In this document: positions 18,352-53,595 of the stretch, one piece after another | Numbering within the stretch: position 1 is the stretch's first letter | How the letters are laid out: each line of letters begins with the position of its first letter | Source of the DNA: Nitrospirota bacterium | GTDB lineage: Bacteria; Nitrospirota; UBA9217 | NCBI GenBank assembly: GCA_963796285.1 | Contig: CAWCKW010000012.1 | Span: 1,088,001-1,152,000 of the forward strand | Reading direction: 5' to 3' | Length of the DNA stretch: 64,000 nucleotides | Program-made: the position numbers and the translations under genes | Notes under the pieces: model-generated | Told to the model about the DNA's origin: nothing | The model's database searches: none | Seen by the model: the letters and a program-made list of their open reading frames with translations, nothing else

Positions 18352-18648
18352 ACCGCCGGGCATTGCAATATTTCTGGTGAGTAATCATAAGATTTGTACA
18401 AACTCCGGAACACGGCATGGAACCGATTATTTTCCGGTCCGCCAGATGGCGGAAAAGGTCGCTGAATAAAAACGCTTCGCTAATGGCCATAATCCCGAAG
18501 GGTGACTGGTACAGTAAAGACTGACACTGAGAACGAATGAAACTGCGGCAGTGGTACGGATGACGATAACGAAAAGGCTCGACGAGCAACGTCCCGTTTC
18601 TCACCACAAGATAGCCCTTTTCGCTTGACGGCGCCCTTTAAATGGGTG
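18352..18648 (+). mobile_element. orphan IS1111-type right end with non-coding (bridge/seek RNA) region; no transposase
   Basis: Reverse-complement homolog of 49840..50130, ending TTGACGGCGCCCTTTAAATGGGTG. Confidence 0.8.
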
Positions 18649-18687
18649 ACGCTCAAATGCTCTTTACAACACTGTAACAGGCCGTCG

Positions 18688-43121: not shown

Positions 43122-43244
43122 CAGTTAAGCGAACCGGCGGAGATTTGTAAATTCGAGGATCAATAGGGGAAAGACGCGATCTGGTTGAGGGTAGAACATC
43201 AAACGGGCTAAGGGCAAAAGTCCAACAGTATGGACCTGACCCCA
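43122..43244 (+). repeat. repeat family C, copy 2
   Basis: CAGTTAAG.GAAC.GGCGGAGATTT ... GTTGAGG.TAGAACATCAAAC.GGCTAAG ... CCTGACCC shared with 27958..28085. Confidence 0.75.
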
Positions 43245-46807: not shown

Positions 46808-47587
46808 TCAATTGCTGAGGAAGATATACTGTTTCAACAAATTGACTTTTCCAAGAGTATAGTCAAAAGGCAGCACGTGGGGAATTTGATATATCGGATT
46901 GACCCTCTTTTGGAGTTCCGCGAGCACAGGCGTCGGCAGGAGAAAATGGTTCAGGATAACCTTGGCCGGGGCTACGAATATCCTGCTGTCACGGACCTCC
47001 AAGCGGAGCGCTGCATACCCTTCAAAGCGATCGTTTACCATGAACTTTTCGACGAGCTTTCTGTCTTTCGGGGGTATCGTACTGGCCGGGACACTGAACT
47101 CCAATTCAATATACGGGGGGCTGAATTTGATCAGAAATTTGTCGTAGTGAAAGTTCCGCCTCCTCGCCGTCCTTATGAATTCATTTTTTATCGTTTGTTC
47201 CGAAACCAGCATCCTGACAGCAAAATCCGAGTAAGAAGTAATTTTAACGGTGTTTGCATTTCTTAACGCCTTGAAATCGATCTTCGGATTGGTATACTGC
47301 GCGGTGACGTAGTCGACAGGTACATCGTTTATCGGGAGCGATACGAATTTCATGAATAAGGACTTCAGGTCCCCGTTTTTGTTGTCCCCGGTGTTCGTTT
47401 TAATCTCTATTCGTTCACACTTCACCGTTTTTCTCAGTGCTTTCGCAAGCTCACCGTCAAGCGATTCCCGGGAATAGAGTGTGGACGTGCCAGATAAAAG
47501 TACGATTACAGCCGCCAAGGCCGTAATCAAACGAGTACGGACGGGATAATTGACAAATCTATTTTTGAAAAAGTGTGCCGTCTTCAA
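46808..47587 (-). CDS. exported hypothetical protein (LmeA/DUF2993-like)
   Basis: Signal-like segment; probable TTG start at 47587 after GAGG. Confidence 0.65.
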   Translation of the reverse strand: MKTAHFFKNRFVNYPVRTRLITALAAVIVLLSGTSTLYSRESLDGELAKALRKTVKCERIEIKTNTGDNKNGDLKSLFMKFVSLPINDVPVDYVTAQYTNPKIDFKALRNANTVKITSYSDFAVRMLVSEQTIKNEFIRTARRRNFHYDKFLIKFSPPYIELEFSVPASTIPPKDRKLVEKFMVNDRFEGYAALRLEVRDSRIFVAPAKVILNHFLLPTPVLAELQKRVNPIYQIPHVLPFDYTLGKVNLLKQYIFLSN

Positions 47588-47963
47588 TATAGAGGTCCTC
47601 TGCGTTATAGAGTTTGGGATTCGGCACGCTGATGCGATAGTGGCCGGCGCCGTTGGTCTCGGACAGGGTGTACACGTACGGTGTTCCGCTCGCGGGATCG
47701 TTGCCGATACGATCAAGGAACGCAGGCTGGAGTTGTTCTAATTTCCGGGGGTATTCCATATTAACGACGAAGTAGGCCTCGACGGCTTTTGAAAGGTTCT
47801 GCAAATCTGCCTGTACCTGTTCCCGGGAGGTAGCGTACGTCTGTTTCGGAGGTTCATAGTTATTGACGCCCCCTTTCCAGTAAAGGACGGCAACATAACC
47901 AAGGATAACCGCTGCAATCACGATCAGGATGGATAAAAATACGATGATTTTTTTCTTTCGCAT
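47559..47963 (-). CDS. membrane-anchored protein with pseudopilin G-like motif
   Basis: N-terminal TM; AVEAY...YP..LEQL.P...DP..G.PY.Y. Confidence 0.7.
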   Translation of the reverse strand: MRKKKIIVFLSILIVIAAVILGYVAVLYWKGGVNNYEPPKQTYATSREQVQADLQNLSKAVEAYFVVNMEYPRKLEQLQPAFLDRIGNDPASGTPYVYTLSETNGAGHYRISVPNPKLYNAEDLYIEDGTLFQK

Positions 47964-48124
47964 AGGCGGATTTCCTATCTCATGGTGTCATCCCAGCAAC
48001 CGATTCATGACCGGGACGTTGTATGTGCTGGCATCACGATATTGCGACGCAACATTCTTTGCCGGAGAATCCCATCAAATCGCCCTGACAACGTCTGCTC
48101 AGGAACAAATTTGCGGAAGCTTTA

Positions 48125-48252
48125 GGTCGTGACCGACATTGTGGGTTTTCCTTCTGCATTTCATTTGTTCAAATTCTCGCATAACACGCGAGGGAGACGC
48201 GAGTCTTTTGCGCGTCGGTCTCGATCCGCTTGAGAACACAGCGTGGAACGTT
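48125..48252. repeat. 128-bp direct repeat copy 2
   Basis: Identical by eye to 46593..46720, including the first codons (MSVTT) of the YkgJ gene. Confidence 0.9.
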
Positions 48253-48334
48253 GTGTCTGAAGTGGACTTATCTACCATCCTGGCCAAAGTTCAGCGTAAG
48301 TCCATGTAGGGCACAACGTCCCCTTTGGTCTCCT

Positions 48335-48616
48335 AGGGCCAGCATCATATCGGAAACCAAATAGAGCCCGGCGGTCACGGGCCAGGCCAGACCCTTGGTC
48401 TGGGCGAGCAATACGCCTGCCGGGATTCCGCCCCCGACAGGGATAAGGAAGAGCATCAATACGGAAAGCATGGGGGATATTAACAAAAGAGACGGACAAA
48501 GGCAAGCGGTTGGGCGGGCTTGGTATTGTGGGGTATTTAACAAAGGTTGATATATCTAATTAGATGCTTGGTAAGGACAACAGAGCGGAAAAATGTCGAC
48601 ATGCAACAAAGGAGAC
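48335..48616 (-). pseudogene. duplicated 5' fragment and upstream region of the 36277..36897 membrane gene
   Basis: High similarity to about 36700..36971; truncated after LYLVSD. Confidence 0.9.
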
Positions 48617-48735
48617 CTGACCCTACCATGCTCCCTTGGCACCCGAGAAACAAAAAGGCCGAATAATTTTCTCTCCGGCCATAATCGCTCAAGCTGCACA
48701 ACGGGTGCAACAACATCCCTAAGATGTTTCCGGGC

Positions 48736-49246
48736 TTACTCACGATGATGGTATCGTCCTAAATCCATTACTTTCGCTAATATTTGGTTAGCTATGTCAA
48801 AATTATTTTTTTGCGTCTCAAGATCGTATATCCATTTAATGCCATGAAAAAGATTATTTCTGTACCTATAAATAATGATGAGAAGCGCACGAACAATATG
48901 TTCGATTTCACGATCTTCGCCATTGAGTACAGCTTTAACTAATTCTTGCTGATCATTTATTCTAAAATTGAGGCTATGAAAGTGCTCGTAAGCAGAGGGG
49001 CCCGTATTATAGCGATATGAAAAATAATTTAGATAAACGGAGAAATAGCTGCAGGTTAAGCGTTCCTTGCGTCGATAAACTTTGCGTTATTTGTGTAAGT
49101 TTTTTGGGAGAAGCTTTTTGTCCGCAAGCTGTTCTTTCAAATAAGTTCCACATTAATGAAAAATGAAGAACAGGTTGAATATCTGCCACCTTGAGTTCTC
49201 TGCTAGCGGAACCAGATTGATTTAACCATCCAATAGCGTCAAACAT
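48736..49246 (-). pseudogene. HEPN-domain (Apea-like) protein split by a +1 frameshift
   Basis: FSLMWNLFE N-terminus; the second frame gives IIYRYRNNLFHGIK...stop 48736; span 511 = 3n+1; low GC. Confidence 0.75.
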
Positions 49247-49859
49247 TGCTCACCCTTTGTCCAAAATAAGTAACTTTGGGGCCGTTGTTTCTATCCATGC
49301 TTTCACAACAACAAGTTGCGCAGAAGCAATACAGCAACCATGAGAGGACAACTTTGGGGACGTTGTTACCCAAATAAAAATTAACCCGACAAACGAATAA
49401 TATTTCACGCCTGGTAGAGAGGATAAAAGCCAAATGATGGTATTCGCTCGTCAGGTATCAACGTCCCCAATACACTATTCTCTTTTTAATTAATAATTGA
49501 CCAAAACGGTTTCAATTATTGTACCTTATGACGGATTAGCAATACGATATTGAATTACTTGGTCAGCCAATTCCTTCATAGCAGTTTCCGCTTGAGCGTG
49601 CATGCCACTAAAGGCGCCCCTGGATAAATGTCTCTTGCCAGGAAGTTCCGAAGCCTTGGCCAAAAGAAAGGACCGCGACCAATATCATCATCGGAAAAAC
49701 ATGAGCATATTTTTCAATACTTCAGCTCGCATCATATCCTCATCAGCGGTCTGCAGCGATAATATGCCCAGTCCGCGCGTGACCAGAATCGCAGTTAAAA
49801 CCCGTACGAAATCTCGATGATATTCGGGTCCCATAGGGTCACCCATTTAAAGGGCACCG

Positions 49860-50232
49860 TCAAGGGAAAAAGCTATCTTGTGGCGAGAAACGGAACGTTT
49901 CTCGTCGAGCCTTTCCGCTATCTTCATCTTCCCATTGCCGCAGTTTCATTCGGTTTCGGTGTCAGTCTCAACTGCACCAGTCACCCATCAGGATTAAGGT
50001 CAGTATGGTGAAACACTGATCCATTGACCCATTCCGTCTTCTGACGGACCAGAAAATCTTCGGTTCCAGGCCGTGTCCAAATGATTGTTCAGGTCTCATG
50101 GTTATTAACCAGCCCCAAGATGGCTCACGGCATGGGCAGTAAAGATGCTGATAACGTTATAAGGGTGGGATGGATTACCAATCAGGTCTCGTGGTTTCGC
50201 CAACCCTAAGGCAGGTTCACCATCCCAGCCAG
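49860..50232 (-). ncRNA. putative bridge/seek RNA of the IS1111 element
   Basis: Lies downstream of the transposase; loops contain matches to the target (AGACCTG, TAGGGT) and donor (ATGGGTG, ATAC); stem covariation against the copy at 18352..18648. Confidence 0.7.
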
Positions 50233-50233
50233 C

Positions 50234-51256
50234 CTATGATACAAACAGTTTCTCCGATATGAACGGCACGTGGTCTCGCATGATGTAGTATGCCGCTCTC
50301 GCCAGTTTGTGTGCAAGAGCATTGATGTGCCGTCATGAAGTTCGTTCTTTGCATCTTCCGGTTGTAATACGCCCGGGGTTCGTCGTGTAATAGCGCCGTG
50401 CGATCTCGGCTGCCTCGGAGAAGGCCCAGGCCAGATACTTATTGCCGCTTTTCTTATTCCCTTTGCCTTTTGCCTTGTCGTTGCTGATCCATTTGCTGGA
50501 GACCTTCCGGCAGTAGGAGACGATAGTTGCCTACTTTCCGAACCGACTGATCGGGCCGGTCTCCAGCATGATGGTGAGTGCCAGAGTCTTTCCCATGCCG
50601 GGATCGTCGAGGAGGCATTGTATGGTTCGCGCAATTTCACCTTTCTTCGATAACATTTTCAATGGTTTTGATCTTACGGGTCAGAAAATCGATAGATTCT
50701 TTGCTGACCTTCCCGGCCAACGCAAGATCTTCGTTCTGTTCGAAGAAGCGGCGCGACGAGATCCGTCTTCAATGCCTTCACGTCATTCGCTTTGAGCGGA
50801 ACCGTTGTTCCGGCAACGATGTTCTGCAAACTGATGATGAGCGAAGTCCTGAGCTTTACGAGATGACTTCGTTTGCGCAATAAGTCTCGGATGGGCCGAT
50901 CTTCTTTCGGATAAATGTAGCCTTCGGGTAGAATTTCGAGCCTCAGCATCTCGGCCAGCCAGAAGGCATCATGCTGATCATCGGAATACTTGAGCCCCGT
51001 GTATTGTCTTTATCTCCGAGGGTTGGCGAGATGTACCTTGTATCCTTCCGCCATCAGCGCATCCACCAGCCAGTACCAGTTGTACGTGGACTCGATGACG
51101 ATGCCAATAATTGTATCCTTGTATGGTGCAAGGCGCTGAAAGAATTTGTTCCGGATAATTGGGAAGCTTTTTCTTGAATACTCGTTTACCAGTTTCATCA
51201 ATGATCGCCAGATAACTGTTGCTTGAATGTAAATCAATTCCTGTGTACAATTGCAT
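50234..51256 (-). pseudogene. IS110 DEDD recombinase/transposase with multiple frameshifts
   Basis: GIDLHS, IESTYNWYW, HLANP, PEGYIYP...RDLLRKR, SNDK.KGKGNKKSGNKYLAWAF and AHKLARAAY distributed across frames. Confidence 0.9.
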
Positions 51257-51477
51257 AAAGCACCTCCTGGGTTTAAGATTGGTCGTCTTTTCCCATGAGC
51301 ATATCAGAGCCTAACCGTTCTGGTATGCTCTGGAGGTGCCCTTTATATGGTTATACAGGTCTATAATGATATATCGCGCGCCTCCCCTCCTTGCTCCTCT
51401 CCCTCCGCAGCTCCTCCTGCCCTAACCCGCTTTTCCTTCTATCCAACCAGCACACTCTCAAGACAAACACCTGCACA

Positions 51478-52113
51478 TCAACTCACCACTGCTATGCTCT
51501 CTATTATTTCAGTTGAATTTTTTACGATAGCGATCCGTTCGAGGATTTTTAAAGAACGTTCATGCGCATCCCGGTCCATCGAAGAAACGCAATCGGAAAC
51601 AACCACCGGGTAGAATCCCCTGTTTGAAGCATCACGCGCCGATGATTCGATCCGAGCCTCGGTTGCTATACCGGTAAAGAGCAGCGTCGTTATCCGCCTG
51701 TTTTTCATCATAAGCTCGAAATTCGTCCCGATGAAAATGCTTGCCGTTGCTTTATCCAGAAGGATGTCCCCCTTCGCAGGCTTTACAGCCTCGGGTATCT
51801 CCCGTTCTCGCGAGCCGGGCGGCATAAAATTCGGCAGTTTGTCCGGGTCCTTGACATTATAGCGCCGCATCATATTGAAAATGCCCCAGGATGACTGGAA
51901 TTCCCTCGGAAGCGGCGTTATGAGGGTATAGACAACAGGCATTTTATTTCGCATGGTCTCCACAAGACGCTTCAGATTGCCGATAAATTCCTCCTTGTTG
52001 AATATTCTGTCTACAAGGCCGTTTTGGACATCCCAGACAACGAGGCACGAGTGGCCGGGATCGGCTATTTCTTTCAGATCTTCATATATGGTGAGGCCAT
52101 TTGCATTTATCAT
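51478..52113 (-). CDS. isochorismatase/cysteine hydrolase family protein
   Basis: LVVWDVQ, K.TASIF.GT, GIATE, SARDA and VVSDC; Arg at the usual catalytic Cys position. Confidence 0.85.
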   Translation of the reverse strand: MINANGLTIYEDLKEIADPGHSCLVVWDVQNGLVDRIFNKEEFIGNLKRLVETMRNKMPVVYTLITPLPREFQSSWGIFNMMRRYNVKDPDKLPNFMPPGSREREIPEAVKPAKGDILLDKATASIFIGTNFELMMKNRRITTLLFTGIATEARIESSARDASNRGFYPVVVSDCVSSMDRDAHERSLKILERIAIVKNSTEIIESIAVVS

Positions 52114-52218
52114 CAACGACTCCTTTCTGCAGAAAGCATCCAATGACGTTTCAAGCGGCTTAGCCTGTCATGGGAAACCCGCTACGAGCATGTCGATGAG
52201 ACATTCGATGTATCCGGC

Positions 52219-52761
52219 TTATTTCTTTTGCACATACTTATTGGAGTACTGGTTGTGCTTAACTTTGTTATAGTCCAGCTCGCTCTCAGGAACCGGCTTC
52301 TTCGTTTCGTCCGGATAGCCGATGCTCACCATGCATTCAACCTTGATGTGCTCGGGCAGTCCCAGCAGACCTTGCATATATTGCTCTGCTGACATTGTTT
52401 CCGTGTGCATACGGTTTCTGATCTGTATCCAGCAGCTGCCGAGACCCAACGAGTGAGCGGTCATCTGAACAAGGATCGCAGCAATGGAGCAGTCTTCAAC
52501 CCATACGTCGCATTTTACGCTGTCGGCACACACGACGATCCCCATGGCTGCGTCCCGCAAATGATGCGATCCGTGCTCTCGTGCTTCCGAAAGCTTGACC
52601 AGGAGCTCTTGATCATCAACAACGATAAATTCCCATGATTTGATGTTTCGCGAGGTAGGTGAGCGGAGTAATGCCTCTATAAGGATATCTCGGGTTTTGC
52701 TCTCAAGAGGCGTATGAGCATATTTACGAATACTTCTGCGTGTGCGTAAGAGATCGATCAT
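52219..52761 (-). CDS. nitroreductase family protein
   Basis: RRSIRKY, WEFIVV, AHSLGLGSCWI and IGYP motifs. Confidence 0.93.
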   Translation of the reverse strand: MIDLLRTRRSIRKYAHTPLESKTRDILIEALLRSPTSRNIKSWEFIVVDDQELLVKLSEAREHGSHHLRDAAMGIVVCADSVKCDVWVEDCSIAAILVQMTAHSLGLGSCWIQIRNRMHTETMSAEQYMQGLLGLPEHIKVECMVSIGYPDETKKPVPESELDYNKVKHNQYSNKYVQKK

Positions 52762-52943
52762 GCCATATCCCCCCATAGCGGTATGCAAGGCCGATGACGA
52801 ATGTTTTGATTATACGCGCATGCAATATGTTGTCAAGAACATCGGTGAGTATTTGAATCCGACGTAAGGCGACGAAGATGCGACGATGCGGCGACGAGAG
52901 TCGACTGGGAAACACGGGGCCGTTGACTCCTCGTCAGGCGGGT

Positions 52944-53595
52944 TTATCTTTTTGCAACAAGGCGCTGCCCCAGATCAAAGGCCTTCTGACAGTCAGCGGG
53001 AAATATTTCTTTACGTCTCAAAGCCTTCTTCTTTGGATCAAAATGCTCCATGATGACCTTTGAATAGTCAGGGAACTGGTACGTGTCATAGCGAGCACAA
53101 GGTTTCGGCCTCGCCAAAGATCATCTTTAACGATGCTTCGGTGGCGCTCATCATTGCCTGGTAGCCGATCTGCGCGCTCATTTCCTCGGGAACGTTCATC
53201 GTGTAGATCATCGCCGTCCGCAATTTACGCGGGAAGAGAGACCGGGGAGGCTGGGAATACACAAGAGGGGCAAAGAGAAGGCGTTCCATGCATGATTTCA
53301 GCTCTCCGGACATGGACCCGAAATATACCGGAGTTCCCAGCACCACTGCGTCGGCCTGGTCCTCGATCCGTTTTAAAACAGGGGTGAGCTCATCTTTCAT
53401 GGCGCATTTGCCCTTGGCGGGCGAGTCGATCATTTTACACACGAAACAACTCGTGCAGCCTTTGAAGGTGAGGTCATAGAGATGGATCAACTCGGTTTCT
53501 GCCCCTGCGGCTTGTGCCCCTTCGATTGTTTTTTTCAGCAGCGTTCCCGTGTTCCAGCTTTTTCTCGGGCTGCCGTTGATGGCGATCAGTTTCAT
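52944..53595 (-). CDS. flavodoxin-like (iron-sulfur flavoprotein) protein, +1 frameshift near 53091
   Basis: INGSPRKSWNT, GCTSCFVC...C, GTPVYF; the other frame continues YDTYQFPDYSK...FPADCQKAFDLG-stop 52944. Confidence 0.85.

Follow-up and report, generated by a model that had tools for sequence, protein, structure and literature searches.

In the 64,000-nucleotide stretch of DNA analysed here (the window; positions 1,088,001 to 1,152,000 of contig CAWCKW010000012.1 of a Nitrospirota bacterium, assembly GCA_963796285.1), the minus strand of positions 49840..51357 carries an insertion sequence that is a member of the IS1111 group of the IS110 family, and the long non-coding region downstream of its transposase gene is its guide-RNA gene. 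Besides a loop that binds the target DNA (loop 1) and a strand matching the right end of the element (the donor strand), this RNA contains a second loop built like the first one (loop 2). Far from being a one-off duplication, loop 2 is conserved, and it is related to loop 1. Its strands keep complementarity to the site of loop 1, that is to the left flank from -1 to -4 together with the core and to the right flank from +2 to +5, but loop 2 does not set insertion sites: the choice of site follows loop 1 alone. A second target-like loop is a new feature within the bridge/seek kind of RNA.

Relatives of the element and models of its RNA

Relatives were fetched with the protein of L002, a copy with an intact transposase in the same genome. 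The resulting 158 loci (78 from species genomes and 80 from metagenomes) were mostly from Nitrospirota/Thermodesulfovibrionia and 'delta-proteobacterial' assemblies, and four plasmid loci were added. For each relative the guide strands, the ends and the flanks were parsed, giving 80 complete copies, 77 of which were distinct. L136 (loop 1 unparsed) and L143 and L150 (odd or nested right flanks) were left out of the insertion set, which comprised 74 unique insertions. The pairing between guides and flanks was scored over 11 positions, and in the shuffle tests of this pairing one representative per flank class was used (n = 27, 5000 shuffles), with relatedness ignored. Sequence changes were placed by parsimony on a maximum-likelihood tree of 98 distinct elements with the guides masked. 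Covariance models were prepared for loop 2 (model R1, from 44 distinct sequences) and for loop 1 (model R2). The long-range pairing, helix P6 and the 3' hairpin described below were taken from RNAalifold on the family alignment, and a MAFFT alignment was used for helix support.

Loop 1 is the target-binding loop

Both loops stand on the minus strand where an earlier note on this DNA, made from the sequence alone, had placed them; the covariance models locate loop 1 at 50161..50232 (R2, 89.9 bits) and loop 2 at 50069..50131 (R1, 80.1 bits). The 3' guide of loop 1, GAGACCTG (50183-50190), contains AGACCTG, identical to the left flank plus the core, while its 5' guide, CTTAGGGT (50203-50210), contains TAGGGT and pairs with the right flank, as that note had read them. 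The dinucleotide AT that follows the 3' guide (50181-50182; AU in the RNA) equals the start of the left end in most relatives, the exception being the lineage of the window element, of which the left end starts with TA. The element is flanked by TAGACC-TG and TG-ACCCTA, with TG at both junctions. The joined flanks give AGACC-TG-ACCCTA, and this 13-mer, AGACCTGACCCTA, is found uninterrupted twice elsewhere in the genome, in agreement with the earlier statement that removal of the element restores the target.

Among the relatives, the guides of loop 1 vary widely, each matching the flanks of its own element. The closing stem covaries, with 46 cells changed on both sides (0/500 shuffles). In the 74 unique insertions loop 1 paired with the flanks at 10.26 of the 11 positions on average, and at +1 in 73/74 insertions; with one representative per flank class the mean was 9.93 against 6.63 after shuffling, a value reached in 0/5000 shuffles. 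It is loop 1, as shown here, that binds the target and determines where the element inserts.

Loop 2 is conserved throughout the family

Loop 2 of the window element carries the same AGACCTG as loop 1 in its 3' strand (GAGACCTG, 50090-50097), together with TGGGGC in its 5' guide-like strand (CTTGGGGC, 50112-50119). A scaffold of GUGA(A/G)CC ... UGG ... CCA ... UG ... UUGG is common to the two loops. A regular expression for the scaffold motif of loop 2 gave 162 matches over 166 loci, a few of them off-target, and at 4 loci it also caught loop 1, and model R1 matched at the expected place in 40/40 family loci searched. R1 also matched the element of a Paraburkholderia plasmid (L167; 44 bits, protein identity 53%) and, weakly, a Caballeronia element (L168). 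In two more remote elements (L169 and L170), one from Pseudoalteromonas (32% identity) and one from Rhizobium (30% identity), neither R1 nor R2 gave a match, which shows the reach of the models and not the absence of the loops. The two models are largely separate: R1 weakly matched loop 1 in 4 loci, and R2 matched no loop 2. Relatives with intact transposases of 340-354 amino acids bear loop 2, and in all of the family members tested it was present, so that the conservation asked for in the earlier note was observed, along with a pairing of its guides to the flanks beyond that of shuffled sets (see below). Loop 2 is nested in a donor domain that is closed by a covarying long-range helix.

The possibility that loop 2 is the donor-binding loop was rejected, since its strands match neither end of the element, AAATGGG-TG on the right and TG-ATAATC or TG-TATAAC on the left. 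The sequence that follows its core was likewise considered as a copy of the left end, being A-rich and alike by eye, and was dropped for lack of covariation. Inside 20 elements, a search with up to 3 mismatches for the sites that loop 2 predicts gave only scattered matches with 2-3 mismatches.

Contigs of four metatranscriptome libraries, 85-99% alike to the window element and therefore from relatives, span loop 1, loop 2 and the donor region (50051-50387, 50082-50269, 50125-50241 and 49936-50080 in window coordinates); strand, ends and level are unreadable from them, and they possibly derive from DNA, so that they give at most a faint sign of expression. In the sequencing runs the share of the element's words was at most 0.20.

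Guides of loop 2 follow the target of loop 1

Over the 74 insertions loop 2 paired with the flanks at 8.58 of the 11 positions, and with one representative per flank class at 8.33 against 6.65 after shuffling (0/5000 shuffles). Its 3' strand (B2) pairs with left-flank positions -1 to -4 in 62-67/74 insertions, and its 5' strand (T2) pairs with right-flank positions +2 to +4 in 67-74/74 and with +1 in 20/74. The retained complementarity to the site of loop 1 is shown for the left flank from -1 to -4 plus the core and for the right flank from +2 to +5.

Lineages that have changed target carry matching loop 2 guides (GAGAAATG/AGGAC; TCTATGC). For the target GAAATG/TCCTATT the loop 2 strands are GAGAAAUG and ACAGGAC, for TTCTG/CATAGAA the strand is CUCUAUGC, and for CGAATG/TCCCTTAT of the Paraburkholderia plasmid element they are, by eye, GGGAAUG and AAAGGAC. 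On the tree, 22 cases were counted in which loops 1 and 2 changed together, on one branch and at one guide position (-1 to -5), against 4.9 expected; in 19 of them the change was to the same base. Of 51 changes in loop 2, 35 were toward the loop 1 state of the clade, 8 away from it and 8 neither.

Elements targeting GAAATG/TCCTATT sit in tandem repeats of about 24 nt, each repeat with a target (left flanks of L015, L018, L019 and L060; right flanks of L017, L021 and L136). Some neighbouring units read ...AAGTG-ATAA-TG-TCCT..., as if a few bases of the left end had been left in the target, perhaps as a footprint. In the left flanks of many relatives a conserved TGTCAA(G) is seen by eye about 8-14 nt upstream of the core (for example L003, L021, L025, L028, L037, L040, L043, L049, L054 and L055), and therefore the natural target seems to be part of a longer conserved motif.

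Insertion sites are set by loop 1 and not by loop 2

When the two loops were compared over the 74 insertions, loop 1 gave the better fit to the flanks in 64 and loop 2 in 2, with 8 ties. At positions where the loops disagree, the left flank (-1 to -5) agreed with loop 1 only in 58 cases and with loop 2 only in 5, and the right flank (+1 to +6) in 90 and 16 cases, respectively, giving 148 against 21 for both sides together. At +1 the counts were 51 and 0, no insertion having the base predicted by loop 2. In the window lineage, where loop 1 reads TTAGGGT and loop 2 TTGGGGC, the right flanks were ACCCTA or near variants, never ACCCCA (hand tally). The exception to this pattern is position +5, where 10 insertions have a C that fits loop 2 but not loop 1, against 5 insertions fitting neither loop; 7 of the 10, read by hand, belong to the L002 clade. 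The C may mean that one A-C mismatch is tolerated, or it may follow from the composition of the target sequences in the hosts.

The earlier note had proposed a naturally multiplexed guide RNA covering two variants of a host repeat. The second similar loop with target-like guides stands, while an independent second specificity is not supported, on the counts given above (64 against 2 insertions, and 51 against 0 at +1). The variant to which loop 2 had been fitted, GACCTGACCCCA, is indeed present at window position 43233, as a single site with about 0.4 expected by chance for a 12-mer (estimate). The description of the target as a high-copy host repeat did not hold, GACCTGACCC occurring 20 times in 3.58 Mb against about 7 expected (estimate).

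A second site for loop 2 at a fixed spacing from the insertion, as for two-site avidity, was also considered and rejected: 68 flank pairs gave no constant distance and no loop 2 preference, by a second-site scoring (wobble pairs allowed, at least 9/11) that is noisy. Several insertions have a cluster of target-like sites within about 120 nt, and in one class there are the 24-nt tandem repeats. Upstream of the L153 insertion, at a distance of 62 nt, is an unoccupied GAGACC-TG-GCCCCAA, matched by loop 2 at 11/11 positions and by loop 1 at 10; no other perfect site of the loop 2 type was seen in the flanks of the 68 insertions. At G000:C12:118858 (-), GATCTGGCCCCAG matches over 13 nt the site that loop 2 of L002 and L003 predicts, and no element is inserted there.

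Donor strand and surrounding fold

The donor strand, GATGGGTG plus AC, is located at 49980..49989 on the minus strand and represents, in the sense orientation, the right end, the core and the first two bases of the right flank, an arrangement resembling a handshake. Among the relatives, the dinucleotide after the motif GAUGGGUG was identical to right-flank positions +1 and +2 in 119/123 loci, and four states were found, AC (94), TC (12), CA (11) and TA (2). In 9 loci a changed right end, AAATGGATG, goes together with a changed motif, GAUGGAUG (GGG to GGA), and one locus was mismatched. The match between ATGGGTG and the right end, given in the earlier note, is thus extended by a handshake, and GAUGGGUG with the two following bases is shown to guide the right (donor) end, a two-base handshake included; only loop 1 has better support as a guide.

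The fold proposed earlier for this part of the RNA had to be changed. A third hairpin closed by CACCA/TGGTG was not supported, 147/500 shuffles reaching its paired fraction; UGGUG pairs instead with a downstream CACC (97.7% of cells paired, 0/500 shuffles). This pairing belongs to helix P6 (GGTGCAGT/ACTGACACC, 49958..49978, minus strand), directly 3' of the donor strand, with 97.7% of cells paired and both-side changes in 13, 3, 3 and 2 sequences. The ATAC that had been taken as a further donor guide lies within a hand-drawn helix, GGTCA/TGACC plus ATGG/CCAT, with 72.8% of cells paired and poorly aligned in the MAFFT alignment. The donor strand is therefore concluded to be a single-stranded junction strand between two helices and not a hairpin.

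The donor domain is closed by the long-range helix, formed between a 5' strand at 50135..50155 and a 3' strand at 49917..49939, both on the minus strand (RNAalifold alignment A1, columns 117-139 with 351-376). Its compensatory changes include columns 117/376 (AU 24, CG 13) and 125/368 (AU 16, GC 14). GUUAUC in the linker was considered as a left-end guide and rejected, since it is part of this 5' strand with its compensatory changes and has no equivalent in L167. Near the 3' end of the RNA region a conserved hairpin, CGACGAGAAAC...GTTTCTCG (49883..49907, minus strand; RNAalifold columns 397-406 with 411-419), has two inner pairs changed on both sides in 13-14 sequences, and is possibly the end of the transcript, that is, a terminator.

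The element, its ends and related copies

Both copies of the core TG, at 51356-51357 on the left and at 49840-49841 on the right, are counted in the span 49840..51357. The sequence is TATAGACC-TG-TATAACCATAT-AAAGGGCACC across the left junction and GGTGCCCTTT-AAATGGG-TG-ACCCTATGGG across the right one. The left subterminal inverted repeat, AAAGGGCACC (51335..51344, minus strand), starts 11 nt inside the left end, is the reverse complement of 49849-49858 and is kept in relatives. The right one, GGTGCCCTTT (49849-49858), is set 7 nt plus the core inside the right end and is overlapped, as read from the sequence, by a -35-like TTGACG (49858-49863), the two together covering 49849..49863 on the minus strand. 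Joining of the right end to the left end would yield TTGACG-18 nt-TATAAC, which may serve as a junction promoter in the predicted circle, by analogy with the pattern published for IS1111 and IS110 elements (PMC11187229).

The element is placed in the IS1111 group because the 10-bp subterminal repeats, the short left end and the non-coding region of about 390 nt fit the published descriptions (PMC11208160, PMC11187229). The repeats fall within the 7-17 bp of the group, the non-coding DNA measures about 390 nt downstream and about 100 nt upstream of the transposase gene, in agreement with a long right end and a short left end, and insertion is site-specific with no target duplication beyond the shared core. 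The earlier assignment of an IS1111-type guide RNA with a target loop and a donor-matching segment is in agreement with the present data. Rfam covariance models gave, over window positions 47000-53000, two chance-level matches (E values 3.3 and 7.5), neither of them in the RNA region of the element.

The transposase gene (50234..51256, minus strand; DEDD/IS110 type) is a frameshifted pseudogene with split open reading frames. Its homology to the intact 348-amino-acid protein of L002 is split over frames 1, 2, 3 and 1, and one TAA lies inside the Pfam match; the window copy still matches PF01548. L002 matches PF01548 (62.6 bits), PF02371 (40.1 bits) and NF033542 (174 bits), and thus has both domains of the IS110 family, DEDD_Tnp_IS110 and Transposase_20. 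The window copy is without a working transposase and could act only with the protein of another copy. The same genome holds two full relatives of about 73% nucleotide identity, L002 (intact) and L003 (frameshifted).

An unoccupied perfect copy of the target, AGACCTGACCCTA, is located at 48613..48625 on the plus strand (C12:1136613), 1.2 kb away and in the orientation opposite to the element. The second genomic copy is at C12:1725866, with a near copy 68 nt off on the other strand.

Solo pieces of the 3' non-coding region were also detected. L004 (window 18355-18653, plus strand) has no transposase gene; a degenerate loop 2 (R1, 21.4 bits) stands at one end of it and a right-end-like AAATGGGTG, with ACGCTC behind it, at the other. 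Comparable pieces elsewhere in the genome are L006, L007 and L008 (loop 2 only). The starts of these four 3' fragments differ, and they look like decay products. A fourth IS110-family element in the genome, L173 (G000:C12:148212-148652), encodes a protein 24% identical; its subterminal inverted repeat measures 12 bp (GGTTGACAGTTG/CAACTGTCAACC), and its gene is followed by a long downstream region. In some relatives a repeated right-end tip, CCCTTTAAATGGGTG, stands directly after the right end (L014:1392-1729, L086:1294-1324 and the right flank of L150), and in L014 it is followed by a second partial non-coding region that starts just before loop 2. These repeated tips may be products of aberrant recombination at right-end-like sequences.

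Comparison with known guide RNAs

With the seekRNAs of ISEc11, ISPa11 and ISKpn4 (Siddiquee et al. 2024, PMC11187229), the present system shares a DEDD transposase, subterminal inverted repeats, a non-coding region downstream of the gene, and a stem-loop of which the 5' strand pairs with the top and the 3' strand with the bottom strand of the target. The strand order of loop 1 is the same as in IS1111 seekRNAs, the 3' strand being the left flank plus TG in the sense orientation and the 5' strand complementary to the right flank; as in a seekRNA, a single stem-loop has the top-strand match 5' of the bottom-strand match. The IS1111 seekRNAs also occur in a longer form of 145-170 nt, the role of which is unexplained (PMC11187229), and loop 1, linker and loop 2 together measure here about 164 nt (50069-50232). 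The differences are the non-coding region of about 390 nt, the second target-like loop with near-cognate guides and the large donor domain after loop 1. In the literature searched, no RNA of an IS1111 element was found to be described with a second loop of the target-like kind, a scope that did not extend to the supplementary folds of the long seekRNAs or to the extended-data figure of IS1111 bridge RNAs.

With the bridge RNA of IS621 (Durrant et al. 2024, PMC11208160; Hiraizumi et al. 2026, PMC13626964), the likeness lies in two similar loops within one RNA, in guides to both strands around a shared core dinucleotide, and in two bases beside the core that match the partner DNA after exchange, here AU after loop 1 and NN after the donor strand. 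Viewed in reverse orientation, the donor strand corresponds to the 'donor guide + handshake guide' arrangement of IS621 (PMC13626964). In contrast to IS621, the strand order is reversed and the RNA is at the right end. The donor internal loop of a bridge RNA has guides to both arms, whereas here only the right arm has a guide, GAUGGGUG, and this guide is a junction strand in a multi-branched domain. The loop that resembles the second internal loop of IS621 carries target-like and not donor-like guides.

Two further findings on IS110 systems are relevant. In CazIS110-1, a junction passes straight to a new target when an RNA with only the target-binding loop (TBL) acts together with the bridge RNA (10.1101/2025.10.25.684509). 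That reaction and the present RNA are alike in having two target-type loops, which act there, and would act here, one on the flank half of the resident junction and one on the new target. They differ in that CazIS110-1 is an IS110-group element with separate RNAs, identical guides and a measured reaction, whereas here one RNA has slightly differing guides and is known from sequence alone. In IS621, pairing with half a site suffices for recombination (10.64898/2026.08.31.748434), which would let a loop with short core-proximal matches act on junctions; the difference is that donor-arm recognition drives excision there, while the extra loop here matches the target arms.

Possible role of loop 2

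Loop 2 may be a second docking loop for the recombinase dimer. It would read the flanks that the resident copy has from its target, namely left flank-TG at the left junction and TG-right flank at the right, while loop 1 would read a new target. A single RNA would then offer in cis the two target-type loops that are needed in IS110 systems for excision by half-match or for direct transfer. Reading of the resident flanks by loop 2 is proposed because IS1111 elements need both target-derived flanks for circles, as described for ISEc11 (PMC11187229), because a TBL-only RNA together with a bridge RNA transfers a junction directly in an IS110 element (10.1101/2025.10.25.684509), and because half-site matches suffice in the recombination of IS621 (10.64898/2026.08.31.748434). 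We offer it as a tentative reading, quite possible and somewhat short of probable. In a wider form of the proposal the RNA would be tri-specific, with loop 1 for the new target, the junction strand for the right end and loop 2 for the old resident flanks; one ribonucleoprotein would bring together the old site, the new site and the end of the element, and excision or direct junction transfer would take place in cis. This tri-specific form is, in our judgement, doubtful.

A number of observations weigh against the reading of resident flanks by loop 2. In loop 2 no feature specific for the left or the right junction was found, and no left-end guide was found anywhere. The two bases after the core of loop 2 showed no covariation with the left end or the right flank, and thus form no handshake. 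The interior fold is ambiguous, the target-loop-like fold having 94.6% of cells paired and an alternative, GCCA:UGGY plus CCA:UGG, 97.9%; distant relatives lengthen the apical stem of loop 2 (by eye), and therefore the target-loop-like fold is favoured. Within the L002 clade, loop 2 has a constant 3' strand (CATGATCTG; CAUGAUCUG) while loop 1 and the flanks vary, and this strand pairs only near the core, partly by G-U. As for the tree, non-guide positions of loop 2 taken as a control also co-changed with the loop 1 guides, at about 1.5 times the expectation (61 against 37.1, and 31 against 19.7), and the general excess is therefore put down to long branches or to whole-module exchange. What is specific to the loop 2 guides is the co-change at the same position to the same base, a signal that could arise in part from short gene conversion between the loops or from copies exchanging their entire non-coding module. 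Loop 1 alone could read the resident flanks, like the single target loop of IS621 and ISEc11. For ISEc11, an 82-nt RNA with one loop was sufficient and gave 42% reporter movement, against 15% for the 154-nt form (PMC11187229), which argues that an extra module of this kind is dispensable for movement in that assay.

Several of these observations suit a loop 2 that is scaffold only, binding protein or shaping the fold, for instance as the core of the donor domain, with strands that touch no DNA: the alternative fold places both strands in hairpin loops, loop 2 of the L002 clade does not follow the left flank, non-guide positions co-change with the loop 1 guides at a similar excess, and the short one-loop RNA suffices in ISEc11. 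The likeness to loop 1 would then come from descent of a duplicated loop with gene conversion or joint inheritance of the module, and the motifs common to both loops are consistent with such an origin, as is the low number of changes at -3 to -5 of the loop 2 3' strand (5, 4 and 7, against 16, 15 and 10 in loop 1). Ancestral retention, however, cannot account for the fit between loop 2 guides and new targets that is seen in separate lineages. The 19 same-base co-changes stand against 4.9 expected of any kind, or about 2.5 of the same-base kind by a rough adjustment (1.5-fold branch excess, one base in three), and the matches are incomplete and broken up (T2 ACAGGAC against T1 ATAGGAC), a pattern that speaks more for selection on pairing than for the copying of tracts. 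We consider a scaffold without DNA contact rather unlikely. An attenuator or decoy, in which a near-cognate loop 2 incompetent for exchange occupies the transposase or the target DNA and tempers transposition, would account for the low pairing at +1 (20/74 insertions against 73/74 for loop 1), for the lack of a covarying handshake dinucleotide and, by analogy, for the lower transposition with the long RNA of ISEc11 than with the short one (15% against 42%; PMC11187229). In other lineages, however, loop 2 pairs at +1 in a shifted register, and the mismatch is not universal; this role appears improbable. The idea that loop 2 is a second independent target loop, sending a share of insertions to a variant (...TG-ACCCCA or ...TG-GCCCCA), draws on a layout equal to that of loop 1, both guide strands being present, on the excess at +5, on L021 and L035, which fit loop 2 better, and L140, which does so at -1, on the perfect site near L153 and on GACCTGACCCCA at 43233. 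It is opposed by the preference of the insertions for loop 1 overall and at the discordant positions of either side, by window-lineage copies never found at ACCCCA despite TTGGGGC in loop 2, by the lack in loop 2 of a handshake dinucleotide matching the left end, unlike loop 1, by the absence of a fixed-distance second site in the 68 flank pairs, and by a target that is not high-copy in this genome. We regard such an independent specificity as very improbable.

Implications for the IS1111 branch

Bridge and seek RNAs are under development as programmable recombinases, and their IS1111 branch is less understood, with the role of the long RNA form and the recognition of the element's own ends among its puzzles (PMC11187229; PMC11208160, on multi-loop donor binding). 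More than 150 natural elements carry the conserved third module described here, the guides of which evolve with the target without setting the insertion site. In either of the roles considered next, the donor strand with its two-base handshake, matching in 119/123 loci, provides a design rule. If loop 2 is an attenuator, it shows a way to damp activity. If loop 2 reads the resident flanks, the dependence of IS1111 excision on target-derived flanks would be explained, and the RNA would represent a natural single-RNA design for direct transfer. Should the tri-specific reading be true, these elements would perform in cis a reaction that IS110 elements achieve only with two separate RNAs.

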